Below are positions 26,889 through 51,827 of a stretch of DNA of 64,000 nucleotides, piece after piece. The notes under the pieces are model-generated. The model was not told the DNA's origin and did not search any database. It saw nothing but the letters and a program-made list of their open reading frames with translations. Source of the stretch: Parcubacteria group bacterium (GTDB lineage Bacteria; Patescibacteriota; Minisyncoccia; UBA6257; JACRHW01); contig JACRHW010000017.1 of NCBI GenBank assembly GCA_016217555.1, positions 5,093-69,092 on the forward strand, written 5' to 3'. The translations under genes were made by a program, and so were the position numbers. The stretch's first letter is position 1; every line of letters starts with the position of its first letter.

Positions 26889-26891
26889 ACT

Positions 26892-27004
26892 GGCGCTGTT
26901 TTGAAACACAATATTCCCTGAGCGAAGTCGAAGGGTTTCCTTAGAGAAAGGCAGGCCTTCGACAAGCTCAGGCACTAGTAATTATGAGGTTACCGAACAG
27001 TGCC
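26892..27004. repeat. Family E composite palindromic repeat, copy 2 (reverse orientation, internally deleted)
   Basis: GGCGCTGTT ... CCTGAGCGAAGTCGAAGGGTTTCCTTAGAGAAAGGCAGGCCTTCGACAAGCTCAGGCAC ... GGTTACCGAACAGTGCC. The interior is the reverse complement of the copy-1 interior. Confidence 0.6.
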
Positions 27005-27016
27005 AAATAGACTTGA

Positions 27017-27117
27017 CCCCGTTAGAAGTAGACAAAATGTGTTAAAATCTTTAGGCTAAAAATGTGGTATCTAGATGTATTGAATCTTAAAAACGTTTTC
27101 GCTACTTCTAACGGGGT
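27017..27117. mobile_element. MITE-like element with 15-bp terminal inverted repeats CCCCGTTAGAAGTAG (family F, copy 1), flanked by TTGA/TTGA
   Basis: CCCCGTTAGAAGTAG ... CTACTTCTAACGGGG is a perfect TIR. The flanks are ACTTGA|...|TTGACTT. The second copy at 51688-51786 has TGAA flanks. Confidence 0.55.
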
Positions 27118-27190
27118 TGACTTAAAACAAAGAATATACCATAAAGAGGTAGAAACATTTTTATGGTATGCGAGGTAGTATACAAAGGGT

Positions 27191-29715: not shown

Positions 29716-29922
29716 CGAGGGGTTAGGTTTTAGTGTGTTAGGTTCCAAGGGCTAGAAATATCATGATCGTGCCTCGTTTCCTAATAAATCCCGTTAAAGG
29801 TAGAAAAAATAGTTAGTATATATTATTATTCATGTGTTAAAAACTATGCAACTATCTAAAACAGTCGTTTGTACCTACCCCTAACGGGATAAACTAATTC
29901 CTAAAAGCTAGAAGCTAATACA

Positions 29923-31884
29923 ATGTCTGACGCACAATTTGATCTCGCTATTGGGGAGACGAACTTTCGCAACCAACGCGTGAGATTTGGTATTCGCCAA
30001 GACGATCGTAGGCGTCATACATATGTAATAGGTAAAAGCGGTATGGGAAAGAGCGTACTCCTTGAAAATATGGCCATCCAGGATATGGAGGCGGGGCGTG
30101 GTCTCGCATTTATTGATCCTCATGGAGATACCGCTGAGAAGCTTTTGGATTTTGTCCCAAAGTCTCGTATTAACGACGTTATTTACTTTGATCCTTCGGT
30201 GCTTGATCATGCAATCGCCCTTAACCCCATGGAAAATGTATCTATTGATCGGCGTCATCTTGTGGCATCGGGGCTTATGAGCGTGTTTAAGAAAATATGG
30301 CCTGATGTGTGGTCTGCGAGAATGGAATATATTTTGAATAATTGCCTCATGGCGCTTCTTGAGATTCCCGATGCAACACTTCTTGGTGTCATGCGTCTTC
30401 TAAACGACAAGGATTATAGAAAATATGTTATCGATCAGCTTACTGATCCTCTCGTGCGAGATTTTTGGACGAAGGAGTTTGCGCGTTATAAAGACCAGTT
30501 TCAGACGGAGGCAATTGCGCCTATTCAAAATAAGATTGGTCAGCTTACCATGAATCCTCTTATCCGTAATATTATTGGACAACCCAAATCGACCATTGAT
30601 ATTCGAAAAATAATGGATGAAGGAAAGATTTTTTTGGTAAATCTCTCTCGTGGGAGAATTGGAGAGGATAATAGCAGCATCCTTGGTTCTTTGCTCGCCA
30701 CAAAACTTCAGCTCGCAGCTATGAGTAGGATTGATATTCCACGCGAGGAGGACAGAAGAGATTTTTATTTGTATATTGATGAGTTTCAACATTTTGCGAC
30801 GCCGTCATTTGCTGCCATTCTTGCCGAGGCGCGCAAGTTTCATCTCAATCTCATCGTAGCTAATCAATACATGACTCAGATGGATGAGACGGTGCGAGAC
30901 GCCATAGTAGGAAACGTAGGGACTATGATGGTGTTTCGCATTGGTGCAGACGACGCCGAGTTTTTTGAAAAGGAGATGTTCCCTGTATTTCTTATGACTG
31001 ATTTGGTAAATCTTCCTCGTGCCCAAGTTATTATGAAGCTTATGATTGACGGGGCAACTTCTCCGCCTTTTTCCGCAGTGACACTTCCTCCGGCATCAAA
31101 ACCAGAGGTCAGTTTTCGTGATGAGATTTTGAAGGTTACCTACTCCACTTATTCTATTGCTCGTGAACGCGTAGATGAGATTATAAATGAATGGTTGAGT
31201 ACTAATTTTGTTTCTGACAAAGATGGTGGTGTCGATGGCGTCATTCCAGGAGGTGTAGCTCCCCGCGAAGGTGTTGGGGCAAGTCAAGACGTGGGTGTAC
31301 AACCTCAGCGTGAGATGTTTAACGCGGTGTGTTGGAATTGTACCGCAGAGACGCAGATTCCTTTTCAGCCCGATCCAAAGTGTGCAGTATATTGCAAAAA
31401 CTGTCTTAAACTTATTCAAGCCGGGAAGATTCTTCCACCGACGCGTCCAAGAGGTGGAGCACCTCTTCCGTCACAAGTACAACAGCAAAGCGCACCTCCT
31501 ATGCCGCCGTCACCACTACAAGCACAACAACCCGTCGTGAAACGGCAAGATGTTTCGTCTGTTCGCCAAGAAACTCCAATAGTAAAGGAATCACAGCAAG
31601 CACCTCGCCCACAATATGTTTCCGGGCAACATATGTCTTCCCAACCTCAAGCGCCGCAGTCTTCTGGGTCATCAGAGCAACCACCTATGCAACAATCGCA
31701 ACAAAACATTTCTTCGAGGTCACAACCTCTACAGGTACAACATTCATCTGCGACATCGTATCTCGACACTATGCTTAAGCAAGCTCCACCTCGCGAGGCG
31801 CGCAAGTTTGCTCCCCCAAAAAAGGAGGTAAATCTCGACGAGCTCAAAAAAGCGATTGAGGAATCTTTGAAGTCTGTGAAGTGA
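29923..31884 (+). CDS. VirD4/TraG/TraD-like (type IV coupling protein family) P-loop ATPase with a Q/P/S-rich tail and a C-terminal zinc ribbon
   Basis: Walker A is HTYVIGKSGMGKS. The TraG-D_C-like Walker B region is FYLYIDEFQHF...AEARKFHLNLIVANQ. The zinc ribbon is CWNCTAETQIPFQPDPKCAVYCKNC. Confidence 0.55.
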   Translation: MSDAQFDLAIGETNFRNQRVRFGIRQDDRRRHTYVIGKSGMGKSVLLENMAIQDMEAGRGLAFIDPHGDTAEKLLDFVPKSRINDVIYFDPSVLDHAIALNPMENVSIDRRHLVASGLMSVFKKIWPDVWSARMEYILNNCLMALLEIPDATLLGVMRLLNDKDYRKYVIDQLTDPLVRDFWTKEFARYKDQFQTEAIAPIQNKIGQLTMNPLIRNIIGQPKSTIDIRKIMDEGKIFLVNLSRGRIGEDNSSILGSLLATKLQLAAMSRIDIPREEDRRDFYLYIDEFQHFATPSFAAILAEARKFHLNLIVANQYMTQMDETVRDAIVGNVGTMMVFRIGADDAEFFEKEMFPVFLMTDLVNLPRAQVIMKLMIDGATSPPFSAVTLPPASKPEVSFRDEILKVTYSTYSIARERVDEIINEWLSTNFVSDKDGGVDGVIPGGVAPREGVGASQDVGVQPQREMFNAVCWNCTAETQIPFQPDPKCAVYCKNCLKLIQAGKILPPTRPRGGAPLPSQVQQQSAPPMPPSPLQAQQPVVKRQDVSSVRQETPIVKESQQAPRPQYVSGQHMSSQPQAPQSSGSSEQPPMQQSQQNISSRSQPLQVQHSSATSYLDTMLKQAPPREARKFAPPKKEVNLDELKKAIEESLKSVK

Positions 31885-32525: not shown

Positions 32526-32600
32526 ATTCCTTGAGCGAGGTCGAAGGGCTATTATACTTGTTTGTCATTCCCGCGCAGGCGGGAATCCAGTGTAAATAAA
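32526..32600. repeat. Fragment of palindromic repeat modules (GTCGAAGGG... plus the GTCATTCCCGCGCAGGCGGGAATCCAG hairpin)
   Basis: ATTCCCGC-GCAG-GCGGGAAT is a perfect hairpin, related to the family E interiors. Confidence 0.5.
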
Positions 32601-32805: not shown

Positions 32806-32866
32806 TGCCTGAGCTTGTCGAAGGCCTACCATAAGGAAACCCTTCGACTTCGCTCAGGGACTATAG
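32806..32866. repeat. CCTGAGCTTGTCGAAGG / CCTTCGACTTCGCTCAGG hairpin module (family E interior type)
   Basis: GTGCCTGAGCTTGTCGAAGGCCTACCATAAGGAAACCCTTCGACTTCGCTCAGGGAC. Confidence 0.5.
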
Positions 32867-40751: not shown

Positions 40752-42728
40752 ATGCGTACACTTGTAAAAATCTTTCTTTTTCTTTCTATTTTTTCTTTAA
40801 TAATTTTTTCTACCGATTTATTTTTTCCCTATATTACGGGTAAGATTTTTGCATTTCGTTTTTTCATTGAATTTGCTTTTATCGCATGGATTCTTGATCT
40901 TTTTTTGCGAAAAACGTTACGGTTCCGTTTTTCCGAGCCAATAGTGAAGGCTCTTCTCATTTTTTCCGGCTCCCTAATTGTTTCTGCCTTTTTTGGAGTA
41001 AATCCTTCGTTTAGTTTTTGGTCTGATTTTGAACGTAGCGAGGGACTATTCTCCTTTTTTCATTATCTCGCGTTCTTTATTATGCTTCTTGATGTGTTTG
41101 TCATGGATGATTACTATCGTTTAATTAAAGCATTTCTTATTATTTCTCCTTTTATTGCCTATTATCAGTTTTCTAATTATGTAAATATTGAAAAACATGC
41201 TTTTGGAAGAATTAATGGACTTCTTGGAAATCCTTCCTATGTGGCAACATTTCTTCTTTTTGTTTTTGGTCTTGGTTTTTATCTTGTTCTTAAAAATAGA
41301 GAACTGTTTCGCTCAACAAAAGACGTCTTTGTGTTGTTTGAGAACTGGCTTTGGTGTTTAATTTTATTGATTGACATTCCTGCCTTTTTCTTTACACAAA
41401 CACGTGGAGCATATGTGGGCGTTTTTGTGGCATTGGTTGTTTATCTTATTATGCTTGGGCGATATGGGGTGGCAAAGGAAAAAAAGATGGCCCGGTACAG
41501 TCTTCTTTTTCTGAGCATTTTTATCGTTTTGGGCAGTGTGCTTATCTTAAAAACAAATGTACTCCCATCGAATTTAAAAGATCCGGGAAGTTTGGTTTCT
41601 CGTTTTTCTACATGGAAGGCCGCTTTGCGTGGATTTCTTGATCGTCCTTTGCTCGGATATGGTCCCGAAAATTTTAACATTGCTTTTGATAGACACTATG
41701 ACCCAGTCCATTCGGGACTAGAGACGTGGTTTGATCATGCACACAATCTTCCCGTTGAGCTTCTTGCGGTGACAGGCGTTGTCGGTTTTCTTGCGTATTT
41801 ATATATTTTTTATATTTTTTTTCGCTATTACTTCTCGATTATCCTTAAAAAACGTCCTATCTATGAAGCGGCTCTTTTCCTTGCAATCCCTGTAGCATAT
41901 TTCATTCAAAATCTTGCCCTATTTGATTCTCTTACCTCTTATGTTTTATTTTTTACATTTCTCGCCTTGGCACGCACCATCGTACTAAGGGAAACCAATA
42001 CATATAGTACCAATATAGTGTATTTTGGACGACCATTATTTATTGGGTTGTGTTGCATCATTCTTTTTTTTGCCCCCCTTTTTGGGATATATTCAAACAT
42101 ATTTGCACTACAAAAAAACATGCGCCTTCTCGCCACATTTTTACCACCACAACAATCGTTTTCTCCGAGCGCAAAAGTAAATGTATATAAGCAACTGTTT
42201 GATTTGCCGGGTTTTGTGGGGAGACGTGAGATTTCTACCGCTCTTGCAAAAGATATATTCGATTGGTCTTCTTCTCGTAATCTTAGTAAGTTTTCCAGAG
42301 AAGATTTTGATGCTTTGAATGAAGGAATAAATATGAGTGAAGAATATCTAACACATGACCCTTCTCATATTCGCAATTATTATTTGTTGGGATATGCTTA
42401 TTCATCAATTGGGGGTTATTTTAAAGACAGAAAGGCTCTGATTCGCGGAGAGGATATCCTCAAAAGAGCAGATAAGTTGAGTCCTGGTAGAATAGAATTT
42501 CTTGAAGTTCTGATTAAAAATCTTGGCGCGCAGAAGAAATATGACGAAGCTCTTAAGTATTCTTTAGAAATTATACGATTGCGCCCCGATATGGAGGCGG
42601 GTCACCGATTCGCCGGAGTCTTTTATCAAAAGATAGGAGAGACAAAGAAGGGGAAAGAAGAGCTTGGCAAAGCATTATTGATTAATCCATCTTCAACCGC
42701 ATCCATATTTTTAGAAGAGAACAAGTAG
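40752..42728 (+). CDS. O-antigen-ligase-like (Wzy_C) membrane protein with C-terminal TPR repeats, paralogue 1
   Basis: TQTRGAYVGVF ... WFDHAHNLPVELL is a Wzy_C/O-antigen ligase signature. The C-terminal 200 aa are TPR-like. 658 aa. Confidence 0.55.
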   Translation: MRTLVKIFLFLSIFSLIIFSTDLFFPYITGKIFAFRFFIEFAFIAWILDLFLRKTLRFRFSEPIVKALLIFSGSLIVSAFFGVNPSFSFWSDFERSEGLFSFFHYLAFFIMLLDVFVMDDYYRLIKAFLIISPFIAYYQFSNYVNIEKHAFGRINGLLGNPSYVATFLLFVFGLGFYLVLKNRELFRSTKDVFVLFENWLWCLILLIDIPAFFFTQTRGAYVGVFVALVVYLIMLGRYGVAKEKKMARYSLLFLSIFIVLGSVLILKTNVLPSNLKDPGSLVSRFSTWKAALRGFLDRPLLGYGPENFNIAFDRHYDPVHSGLETWFDHAHNLPVELLAVTGVVGFLAYLYIFYIFFRYYFSIILKKRPIYEAALFLAIPVAYFIQNLALFDSLTSYVLFFTFLALARTIVLRETNTYSTNIVYFGRPLFIGLCCIILFFAPLFGIYSNIFALQKNMRLLATFLPPQQSFSPSAKVNVYKQLFDLPGFVGRREISTALAKDIFDWSSSRNLSKFSREDFDALNEGINMSEEYLTHDPSHIRNYYLLGYAYSSIGGYFKDRKALIRGEDILKRADKLSPGRIEFLEVLIKNLGAQKKYDEALKYSLEIIRLRPDMEAGHRFAGVFYQKIGETKKGKEELGKALLINPSSTASIFLEENK

Positions 42729-42776
42729 CGTGTTCAGGAGGCCAATAATTACAATCAAAACTTTTTTTAAAATTCC

Positions 42777-44753
42777 ATGCGTGTTCTTGTAAAAATCTTT
42801 CTTTTTCTTTCTATTTTTTCTTTAACGTTTTTTTTAGCTGACTATTATTTCCCCTATATTGTCAGCAAGGTATTTCCTTTTCGATTGTTTATCGAGCTTG
42901 CGACAATCTCGTGGCTCATCAATCTCTATTGGTTTCGTATAATACGTTTTAAGTTTTCTGAACCTATTGTAAAGGCTGTTCTTGTTTTTTCTGGGGCACT
43001 TCTTGCCTCCACTCTTTTTGGGGTGAACCCACTCTTTAGTTTTTGGTCTAATTTTGAACGGAGCGAGGGGCTTTTTTCTTTCTTGCATTATTTAGCATTT
43101 TTCATCCTCCTCATTGATGTATTTTCTGAAGATGACTACTATCGTCTTATTAAGTTTCTTCTTCTCCTCTCCCCGCTTATTTCTTATTATGGGTTTTCGA
43201 GTTTTCGGGATGCTAATACTTATCAGTATGGAAGAGTGTTTGGGGTTTTTGGAAATCCCTCATACCTTGCGGCATTTCTTATTTTTGTGTTTGGGTTTGG
43301 TGTGTTGTTGATTTTGAGAAATATAGAATTTGCTAAAGTTTTGAAGGATCCCTTGTTGATTGTCGAAAATATACTTTGGATAGTTCTTTTGTTGGGAGAT
43401 GTTCCAGCATTCATTCTTACACAGACAAGAGGTGCTTACATTGGACTTTTGGTTGGCGTGCTTGTTTTTCTTATCTTTCTTTTGCGGCAGGGAAAGGGGG
43501 TTCAGAAAAAATATGCTGTCGGAGGTCTCATTGTACTTCTTTCTCTTGTTGCGCTTGCGGGGTTTGTCATTTTAAAAACCAAAATAGCTCCGGCGAATCT
43601 TAAGGATCCATCCACACTTGTCTTTCGTTTTGCTACGTGGGGTTCAGCATGGAAATCATTTCTCGACCATCCTCTTTTCGGGTATGGTATGGAAAATTTT
43701 TCAGTTGGATTTGATAAGCACTATAACCCAATCCATTCGGGTGTTGAAGTCTGGTTTGATCACGCCCACAGTGTGATATTTGATGCACTTGCAAGCACGG
43801 GTCTCTTGGGACTTATTTCCTATATTGCTATTTTTGTAGTACTATTTCGTTTCTATCTTCCCGTGATCACAAAACGACGCCCGGTGTTGGAGGCTGGTGT
43901 ATTCTTTGCCCTTCCTATTGCATATTTTGTCCAAAACCTTGTTTTGTTTGATACCCTTTCTTCCTATATCCTTTTCTTTCTCTTTCTTGGTGTGGTGCGT
44001 TCAGTGTTTTTGAAGGAGACAAGCAAGAATAAAGAGAAAACTTTTTTTGCGGCACACCCCATACTACTAAGTTTTGTAGTGGTGATGCTTGTTATTGCTG
44101 TAGTTTTTGGTATTTATGCGAACTTTGTTGCTTATCAAAAAAATAGGGAGTTAAGGACCGCCTACACTCTTTCTCGCCAATCCCAACTTCCTCGTGGAGT
44201 GGAGGAGTATCGAGGATTACTTGATATGCCAGGATATTTAGGAAGAAGGGAGGTGATTAAGGATTTTGCCGCTTATTTGTATGAGTGGTCCGCAAAATCT
44301 GATTTGCGGTCTCTTTCCAAAGAGGATGGTGGTGCCCTGGGTGGGGGCTTGAGGACAGTAAACGATTTTCTTGACAAGGAAGATCCTCAATACCTTAATG
44401 GATATTATCTTTTTGCGAATACCTATAACGTGATTGCATTTAAATTGGGTGATGCTACCGTGTTTCAAAAGACGGAATCTACCCTAAAAGAAATGAATAC
44501 AAAGAGCCCAAATCGCATAGAAATAATCAATTTGCTTGCAGATAATCTTATTGCACAGAGAAAGTATGACGAGGCGCTTAGTTATGCGCTTCAAATTACA
44601 ACACTGCGTCCTGACATGGAGGTGGGGCATAGGCTTGTTGGGTTTGTATACAATAAGATAGGGAGGCGTGACGAAGCTAAAAAAAAGGGGGAGGAGGCTT
44701 TACGTATCAATCCAAGCTCTACCGCCGCAGAATATCTTAAAAAAATACGTTAA
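42777..44753 (+). CDS. O-antigen-ligase-like (Wzy_C) plus TPR membrane protein, paralogue 2
   Basis: Same length (658 aa) and architecture; TQTRGAYIGLLVG ... WFDHAHSVIFDAL. The 5' 50 nt are nearly identical to paralogue 1. Confidence 0.55.
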   Translation: MRVLVKIFLFLSIFSLTFFLADYYFPYIVSKVFPFRLFIELATISWLINLYWFRIIRFKFSEPIVKAVLVFSGALLASTLFGVNPLFSFWSNFERSEGLFSFLHYLAFFILLIDVFSEDDYYRLIKFLLLLSPLISYYGFSSFRDANTYQYGRVFGVFGNPSYLAAFLIFVFGFGVLLILRNIEFAKVLKDPLLIVENILWIVLLLGDVPAFILTQTRGAYIGLLVGVLVFLIFLLRQGKGVQKKYAVGGLIVLLSLVALAGFVILKTKIAPANLKDPSTLVFRFATWGSAWKSFLDHPLFGYGMENFSVGFDKHYNPIHSGVEVWFDHAHSVIFDALASTGLLGLISYIAIFVVLFRFYLPVITKRRPVLEAGVFFALPIAYFVQNLVLFDTLSSYILFFLFLGVVRSVFLKETSKNKEKTFFAAHPILLSFVVVMLVIAVVFGIYANFVAYQKNRELRTAYTLSRQSQLPRGVEEYRGLLDMPGYLGRREVIKDFAAYLYEWSAKSDLRSLSKEDGGALGGGLRTVNDFLDKEDPQYLNGYYLFANTYNVIAFKLGDATVFQKTESTLKEMNTKSPNRIEIINLLADNLIAQRKYDEALSYALQITTLRPDMEVGHRLVGFVYNKIGRRDEAKKKGEEALRINPSSTAAEYLKKIR

Positions 44754-51476: not shown

Positions 51477-51580
51477 TGCCACCTTAGCTCAGCTGGCAGA
51501 GCAACACTTTTGCTCCGATATTGTATAAAATCATAAATTTTGTACAATATCGAGAGTCCTCGATTTTATAAAAAAAATTT

Positions 51581-51654
51581 GCCAGAGTAGCTCAGCTGGC
51601 AGAGCAACACTTTTGTAAAGTGAAGGTCGCGAGTTCGAATCTCGCCTCTGGCTC
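51581..51654 (+). tRNA. tRNA-Thr (anticodon UGU)
   Basis: GCCAGAG...CTCTGGC-T acceptor stem, anticodon loop TTTGTAA and T-loop GTTCGAATC. Confidence 0.8.
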
Positions 51655-51687
51655 ACGCAAATTTTTATAAAATCGGGATAAAGTGAA

Positions 51688-51786
51688 CCCCGTTAGAAGT
51701 AGGTAAAAACATTTGTTGTTCGTCTCGTGTATATCATAGATGGTACAATAATGTAGAAAAATTGTTTTTGTATACTTCTAACGGGG
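51688..51786. mobile_element. Family F MITE-like element, copy 2, inserted into the 3' half of the split tRNA (TGAA duplication)
   Basis: CCCCGTTAGAAGTAG ... CTACTTCTAACGGGG. The flanks are AAGTGAA| and |TGAAGGTC. Confidence 0.55.
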
Positions 51787-51827
51787 TGAAGGTCCTCGGT
51801 TCGAATCCGAGAGGTGGCTCAGGTATT

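Follow-up and report, generated by a model that had tools for sequence, protein, structure and literature searches.

A family of small hairpin elements with 4-bp target-site duplications, probably non-autonomous DNA transposons, in a Parcubacteria-group genome and other CPR lineages

The window analyzed here, a stretch of 64,000 nucleotides from a metagenome-assembled genome (MAG) of the Parcubacteria group (contig JACRHW010000017.1), contains three copies of a hairpin element, designated family F, that are 99 to 101 bp in size (Table 1). As an earlier note on this DNA had proposed, the family F copies are best explained as a non-autonomous cut-and-paste DNA transposon (MITE), a reading to which we give a probability of about 0.85. 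The elements are small and gene-less, have inverted termini, are flanked by a duplication of fixed length, and occur in multiple copies that are polymorphic among relatives, which are four of the properties by which MITEs are recognized. The mobility of the window elements is demonstrated by empty sites and by presence or absence among relatives. Each element is a gene-less hairpin of about 100 bp with terminal inverted repeats of about 15 bp, the tips of which would be bound by a transposase encoded elsewhere. This enzyme, presumably of the DDE type and acting in trans, would cut its target with a 4-bp stagger at T-N-N-A, and repair would then give the 4-bp duplication. No earlier description of the family was found in the literature searched by sequence and by topic.

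Table 1. Coordinates of family F copies, their target-site duplications and associated features in the window
Feature	Position	Length	Strand	Description
Family F copy 1	27017-27116	100 bp	.	Perfect 15-bp inverted termini CCCCGTTAGAAGTAG / CTACTTCTAACGGGG
Copy 1 target-site duplication, TTGA	left 27013-27016, right 27117-27120		.	
Family F copy 2	51688-51786	99 bp	.	In the 3' half of the tRNA-Thr(UGU) gene
Copy 2 target-site duplication, TGAA	left 51684-51687 (+), right 51787-51790			Left repeat is tRNA positions 41-44
Family F copy 3, diverged	29789-29889	101 bp	.	Termini TCCCGTTAAAGGTAG...CTACCCCTAACGGGA
Copy 3 target-site duplication, TAAA	29785-29788 and 29890-29893			
VirD4/TraG-like ATPase gene	29923-31884			Downstream of copy 3
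Disrupted resident tRNA-Thr(UGU), 5' half	51478-51512		+	Positions 1-35, by comparison with intact genes in L059 and L063
Insert in the anticodon	51513-51678	166 bp		
Complete tRNA-Thr(UGU) within the insert	51581-51654			
Disrupted tRNA-Thr, positions 36-44	51679-51687		+	TAAAGTGAA, between the two insertions
Disrupted tRNA-Thr, 3' part	51791-51821		+	Variable loop, T arm, acceptor 3' strand

The earlier note had described two copies with perfect termini. Copy 1 does match at 15 of 15 positions, whereas the inverted repeat of copy 2, the right terminus of which is ATACTTCTAACGGGG, matches at 14 of 15, and the count of copies is three. Copy 1 starts where it had been placed but ends one base short of the 27117 given for it. 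The TTGA and TGAA repeats reported around copies 1 and 2 are present on both sides, and the interiors of these copies are as dissimilar as had been claimed, with 66% identity in either orientation, approximately the level of most other interior pairs compared. The copy 1 interior is 73 to 77% identical to those of copies in other genomes (L209, L013, and L026). In copy 3, each arm carries one change relative to the AGAGGTAG-type stem. When the window was searched with the terminal 15-mer, allowing up to 3 mismatches, 6 matches were obtained against 0.88 expected, and 0 of 100 shuffles gave 6. Folded as single-stranded DNA, all three copies form long hairpins, with z-scores of -4.8 (copy 1), -6.6 (copy 2), and -2.6 (copy 3). 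No open reading frame (ORF) of at least 90 amino acids from start to stop lies within any window copy, and neither a terminator-like site at these copies nor a terminator-like tail after them was seen.

One protein encoded in the window matches HZA35_03035, from a MAG of the Parcubacteria group, at 100% identity. Copy 1 has secF on one side and, on the other, a gene for a protein with sigma-70 region 4 and HARE-HTH domains; the promoter-like sequence of the latter gene, TTGACT-17-TATATT, lies downstream of the copy. Copy 3 is 33 bp upstream of a gene encoding a VirD4/TraG-like ATPase. None of the three copies abuts a start codon, and they are of a plain, unspecialized type relative to the start-codon lineages described below. 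The window also holds other repeated sequences. The approximately 120 bp directly upstream of copy 1 (26891-27010) are missing from the sister genome L209 and contain another inverted-repeat element, CCTGAGCGAAGTCGAAGG ... CCTTCGACAAGCTCAGG, an 18-mer of which recurs at 32530-32547 and 32841-32858 (3 matches against 0.02 expected). Two neighboring 658-amino-acid paralogues with an O-antigen-ligase (Wzy_C) domain are encoded at 40752-44753, with an AT skew of -0.35 to -0.23.

At the site of copy 2, relatives read AAAG-TGAA-GGTCC, compared with AAAG-TGAA-[C...G]-TGAA-GGTCC in the window, so the duplication is 4 bp long and the terminal C..G pair is part of the element. An exact empty site for copy 3, CTAA-TAAA-CTAA, is present in the sister MAG L209 (JACRHX01), in which the gene adjoining the copy is 86% identical. 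Copy 1 is found at the identical site in L209 and is missing from L210 and L211 among the four syntenic relatives compared; the genes adjoining the site are 79% (L210) and 73% (L211) identical. Copies 2 and 3 arrived once the lineage had separated from its nearest sampled relatives, and copy 1 is older. The copy 1 orthologues differ by a paired change in the stem, with AGAAGTAG/CTACTTCT in the window and AGAGGTAG/CTACCTCT in L209, which is a compensatory change. The earlier note had tied mobility to duplications at other copies and to variable loci, and the comparison spoke for it, with duplications at other copies of the family and empty sites in relatives.

The tabulation of flanking 4-mers that had been suggested as a check gave a perfect 4-bp duplication for 52 of 103 non-redundant elements and 3 of 4 matching positions for 20 more, with 0 of 103 in a shifted control. 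A perfect duplication was also found for 47 of the 57 elements of an independent metagenome sample. The flanking 4-mers match left and right and are varied (TGAA, TGGA, TGAG, TGTA, TCCA, TTGA, TAAA, and TAAG), and the target 4-mer is present once in the empty sites of copies 2 and 3 and of an insertion in rpsB. The first base of the duplication is T and the last is A in 99 of 104 cases (T-N-N-A). TGAA, TCCA, and TCAA dominate, and TTAA accounts for 2 of the 52 perfect duplications. The terminal pair of the 103 non-redundant elements is T..A in 60 and C..G in 32. Parsing the duplication as 5 or 6 bp was ruled out by the GTGAA found downstream of C..G-ended copies at ATGAA (loci L007, L039, and L242), and likewise by the copy 2 empty site, which assigns the terminal C..G to the element.

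Exact paired 13-mers of the termini were found at 57 loci in a set of species-representative genomes, nearly all of them CPR MAGs, with binning and labels that are uncertain for most. The lineages bearing the exact paired repeat are Saccharibacteria, Yanofskybacteria, the Parcubacteria group, Moraniibacteria, Kaiserbacteria, Staskawiczbacteria, and Zambryskiibacteria. The labels of a few records place them outside the CPR; of these, L057 at least, on which homologues of the window's own CPR genes are present, is probably mis-binned. Paired tips also occur in 24 virus-like contigs of IMG/VR, some of which have capsid- and portal-like ORFs. A separate scan of viral contigs with a single 14-mer gave solitary matches with no inverted partner, and these are probably due to chance. 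In a relaxed search, the tip YCCCGTTAGA...TCTAACGGGR was invariant across the family, stem positions 10 to 15 covaried between lineages, the length of the element ranged from 39 to 190 bp, and the interiors were unrelated from lineage to lineage. Insertions are nested or in tandem in places (L055 and L256), with up to 7 copies within 8 kb in L055. In L256 (3294-3527), two long-type elements stand in tandem with only TGAA between them, the second having gone, in unchanged orientation, into the start-codon-like site that the first had rebuilt. Rfam matched only tRNAs in the window and in 8 element-bearing loci and gave no family for the elements.

Some further elements were noted in the viral and metagenomic contigs. 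Five related phage-like contigs in IMG/VR (L196, L197, L198, L200, and L201) have an identical 93-bp element in the same place (for example, 3782-3874 in L198), with tips ACCCGTTAGAACG...CGTTCTAACGGGT and without a flanking duplication; it contains GGGAGG followed by ATG, and the reading frame exits through the right arm. Four metagenome contigs (L215, L220, L246, and L269) each end within a family F element, and these elements therefore appear to break short-read assemblies.

The tRNA-Thr(UGU) gene that harbors copy 2 is interrupted twice in the window. In L059, L063, and L064, the gene is uninterrupted and lies directly after the same small gene adjoining EF-Ts. The intact orthologues in L059 and L063 place copy 2 after tRNA position 44, which bears out the interruption of the gene that had been read from the window. 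L058, a contig that matches the window's small gene by EF-Ts, breaks off where the split tRNA-Thr begins, some 210 bp short of copy 2. The second interruption, the 166-bp insert, falls between anticodon positions 35 and 36 and has no target duplication. It contains a 44-bp hairpin followed by a complete tRNA-Thr(UGU), the acceptor and T stems of which differ from those of the resident gene and which is bracketed by inverted repeats of about 17 bp, TCCTCGATTTTATAAAAA / TTTTTATAAAATCGGGA. This insert resembles a small element that breaks a tRNA gene while providing a replacement. We infer that it preceded copy 2, in which case the later insertion of copy 2 would have been harmless, since the gene would already have been dead.

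Other tRNA genes in related genomes are also associated with inserts. In the sister genome (L016, JACRHX010000029, 5680-5905), a lone family F left end interrupts a tRNA-Glu(UUC) gene at TTCA in the anticodon loop; the 5' half of the gene is there, and the 3' half is absent from the 8-kb locus. Directly after this left end comes a complete tRNA-Ala(CGC), and its 3' end, TCCA, serves as the duplicated target for a further full family F copy. Downstream of tRNA-Tyr in L059 (4340-4570) and L063 (715-800) are small inserts of about 50 to 190 bp that are delimited by a further copy of the 3' end of tRNA-Tyr (ATTCCCTCTCTGCCCACC) and that look like footprints of a tRNA-gene-integrating element.

Sister lineages of the family, comprising a long type of about 110 bp and a mini type of 45 to 80 bp, are found mostly at start codons. 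With ORF starts assigned mechanically, 36 of 58 exact-repeat copies lie directly against a long ORF, the start codon of which begins with the last base of the element, and all 36 align in one orientation. The subterminal motif CCCTAACGGG, a copy of the 3' tip, is at the gene-distal end in all of its bearers, which make up most of the 36. Judged by their N termini, the abutted genes presumably include secY, dnaN, dnaE, dnaB, rpsB, rplB, rpsR, rplS, and mreB, and several of the N termini look, in our estimation, typical of their families. Elements are likewise located at start codons in 51 of the 103 cases of the other sample, with none antisense. The independent metagenome sample, which was picked solely by the 24-nt left end and comprises 57 complete elements, gave the same picture: the distal junction forms ATG or GTG in 53 of 57, with an ORF of at least 50 amino acids in 44 of these, the A of the old start codon is kept upstream in 47, and none of the 57 is antisense to a gene. 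In the sense of the element, the duplications in this sample are TGAA, TGGA, TGAG, and TGTA and never TTCA or TCCA.

The start codon is rebuilt as ATG from the last base of the element and the duplicated TG. At the three loci mentioned above where C..G-ended copies occupy ATGAA, the downstream start becomes GTG, and the first base of the rebuilt codon is thus supplied by the element. In rpsB (L021, duplication TGGA), the element lies directly after the A of ATG, and the empty site in three relatives reads TTGATT-N17-TATTAT-N10-ATG, a near-leaderless promoter arrangement. Six mini-elements in contigs of the virus collection contain AAGGAGGT just within the gene-side tip, so arranged that a Shine-Dalgarno sequence is followed by 11 nt, the rebuilt ATG, and ORFs of 73 to 640 amino acids; capsid- or portal-like ORFs are present on 4 of these 6 contigs. 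We consider the chances evenly balanced that the long and mini lineages are transposons with the start codon as a safe harbor, that is, mobile 5'-untranslated-region (5'-UTR)/translation-start cassettes that have spread across the CPR and phages. Such elements would integrate between A and TGRA in a single fixed orientation, their last base and the duplicated TG would restore ATG (or GTG with C..G ends), and some would bring a Shine-Dalgarno sequence of their own. With the start codon rebuilt, essential genes (rpsB, secY, dnaN, dnaE, dnaB, and rplB) would stay expressed. Either the machinery reads the asymmetric ATGRA or selection removes all other insertions to leave the one-orientation pattern.

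Several routes by which an element might influence the abutted gene were considered. Neither read-through nor translational coupling that starts at the old start codon is accepted, as the reading frame from the old ATG into the element mostly stops inside it, usually 40 to 90 nt before the rebuilt ATG. A sense-strand promoter within the element found no support, the mean of a simple consensus score being 7.9 for the sense strand and 7.7 for the antisense strand; as a -10 box, the repeat (TACTTC-N7-A) would itself be poor. An antisense terminator as the cause of the orientation bias had weak support, a hairpin with a U tract being present in 16 of 36 cases in antisense versus 8 of 36 in sense. 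The interior folding energy is -15.9 kcal/mol in sense versus -13.3 kcal/mol in antisense, with G-U counts alike on both strands. With the 5' arm removed, accessibility of the start region is slightly higher in sense than in antisense (0.454 versus 0.392; p = 0.006). Long-type copies have no Shine-Dalgarno sequence. Many of the native upstream regions of these genes are also without an obvious one and have a -10 box 5 to 12 nt from the ATG, so that these hosts may normally initiate translation without a Shine-Dalgarno sequence.

Some features of the family are unusual for a MITE and invite other explanations. Identical termini of 13 to 15 bp recur across CPR lineages, which we take to be deeply diverged; covariation in the stem is seen more typically in a hairpin under selection than in a pair of transposase-binding ends that evolve independently; and a DDE element would not usually insert in so strict an orientation as is found in some lineages. 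A hairpin mobilized as single-stranded DNA by an HUH/Y1 enzyme, as in REP/RAYT-like elements or derivatives of an IS200/IS605 palindrome, would accommodate the covariation, seen both between lineages and in one orthologous pair, as well as the strict orientation relative to an asymmetric target, the GTAG within the repeat, and the failure to find a parent insertion sequence with matching ends in the loci searched. IS200/IS605 and REP elements do not duplicate their targets, however, whereas family F has true and varied 4-mer duplications that are each present once in empty sites, and GTAG is unconserved in other lineages of the family; we therefore regard this explanation as unlikely. It is quite unlikely that the elements are mobile 5'-UTR/translation-start cassettes or RNA-processing sites that are kept for a benefit to expression of the abutted gene. 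The abundance of start-codon sites (44 to 53 of the 57 and 51 of the 103 elements) without any antisense case, the position of AAGGAGGT exactly 11 nt ahead of the rebuilt ATG in mini-elements, and the small gain in sense accessibility would fit such a role, but the three window copies are away from start codons, the promoter signal is not sense specific, the Shine-Dalgarno sequence is missing from long-type copies, and the short frame from the old start codon usually terminates within the element. A preference for ATGRA targets combined with purifying selection could yield an equal pattern, and the benefit is hypothetical.

A vertically inherited, immobile hairpin serving as a conserved structured RNA, terminator, or regulatory element is very unlikely, in spite of the strong hairpins, the tip conserved over CPR lineages, and the many copies in the 5' regions of genes in sense orientation. 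Empty sites in close relatives, in which the target is single-copy, contradict it, and the unrelated interiors without an Rfam match, the lack of a terminator-like tail at the window copies, the copy within a tRNA gene, and the similar interior folding energies on the two strands argue against it as well. Copy 2 does form a hairpin inside a tRNA gene, as would a tRNA-Thr intron that is removed from the RNA, yet an intron is hardly credible when the gene is also split in its anticodon by an insert bearing a whole replacement tRNA-Thr, tRNA positions 41 to 44 are duplicated around the copy, elements of the same type occur in intergenic DNA, and orthologous tRNA-Thr genes are uninterrupted. A non-autonomous cut-and-paste transposon remains the reading that we prefer for the family.

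Searches for the enzyme and for a parent element were made in the window and in the collected loci. No transposase domain was detected in the 50 window ORFs with Pfam, or with NCBIfam in 10 of those left unassigned, and none of the window ORFs scanned had an integrase domain. This agrees with the earlier view that a cognate transposase is not present in the window, although several hypothetical proteins are without a domain assignment and the absence is for that reason not fully proven. When 380 ORFs from the loci were clustered all against all, no multicopy transposase-like cluster emerged, and paired tips 0.5 to 4 kb apart yielded no real case in any of the loci. An autonomous element with family F termini was found neither in the 57 genome, 24 viral, and 74 metagenome loci nor in the window, and one with family F tips was likewise absent among approximately 130 loci; the insertion sequence with the same inverted repeats that the earlier note had suggested looking for thus did not appear in the loci searched. 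Six metagenome matches without a right end are explained by contig ends or mutated right repeats.

The termini and the target of family F offer some hints of its relationships. The 4-bp duplication of the form T...A and the CCC...GGG termini are like those of IS1380 and piggyBac. IS1380 elements, as catalogued in ISfinder, have repeats of about 15 bp that start with CC and a duplication of 4 to 5 bp. The piggyBac elements have CCC tips and a TTAA target that is rarely replaced by variants such as TAAA or TCAA, and IS1380 serves as their prokaryotic outgroup (PMC10813416). Unlike piggyBac proper, family F has a T-N-N-A target and few TTAA duplications (2/52), and unlike both groups it has one variable self-complementary pair, C..G or T..A, before the CCC tip. 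A possible kinship with IS1380 or piggyBac-like enzymes is suggested by the CCC tips and the 4-bp T..A duplication.

Family F also shares features with several known groups of small repeats. Like the Correia/nemis elements of Neisseria, ERIC, and the Rickettsia palindromic elements, it is small, gene-less, and multicopy, with hairpin-forming terminal inverted repeats and target-site duplications, and copies lie beside or within genes, including RNA genes, and are cotranscribed with their neighbors. Correia elements have a TA duplication and 26-bp repeats. Family F differs from these groups in its termini and target, in covering many CPR lineages rather than one genus, and in having sister lineages inserted exactly on start codons in one orientation, and we know of no such exact start-codon habit in the Correia/nemis, ERIC, or Rickettsia palindromic families. 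Conserved hairpin repeats with a covarying stem and fixed orientation, dispersed in the genome with no transposase between the ends, are likewise typical of REP/BIME elements with RAYT and of IS200/IS605 palindromes, but REP/RAYT and IS200/IS605 derivatives are excluded because the varied duplications were verified against empty sites. Integron attC sites, which are imperfect palindromes of 57 to 141 bp with variable centers, resemble the family in lying just upstream of genes, and GTTAGAA and TTCTAAC each agree with the corresponding attC core, GTTRRRY or RYYYAAC, at 6 of 7 positions. In family F, however, the cores stand in reverse order (GTTAGAA ... TTCTAAC versus 5'-RYYYAAC ... GTTRRRY-3'), and the family has duplications, shows no integrase or cassette array, and is located in tRNA genes and at the start codons of core genes; attC identity is excluded because core order and context differ.

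CPR/Patescibacteria genomes are small and streamlined. The tips shared by Saccharibacteria, lineages of the Parcubacteria group, and virus-like contigs point to an unrecognized active mobilizing enzyme and also to gene flow between lineages. For genome annotation, the practical consequence is that family F elements can mislead gene callers at start codons. In the window, one copy marks a disrupted tRNA-Thr gene, now replaced. If true, insertion into the start codons of essential genes with rebuilding of the codon would be an unusual means by which mobile DNA avoids harm to its host, and it may also supply regulatory variation.
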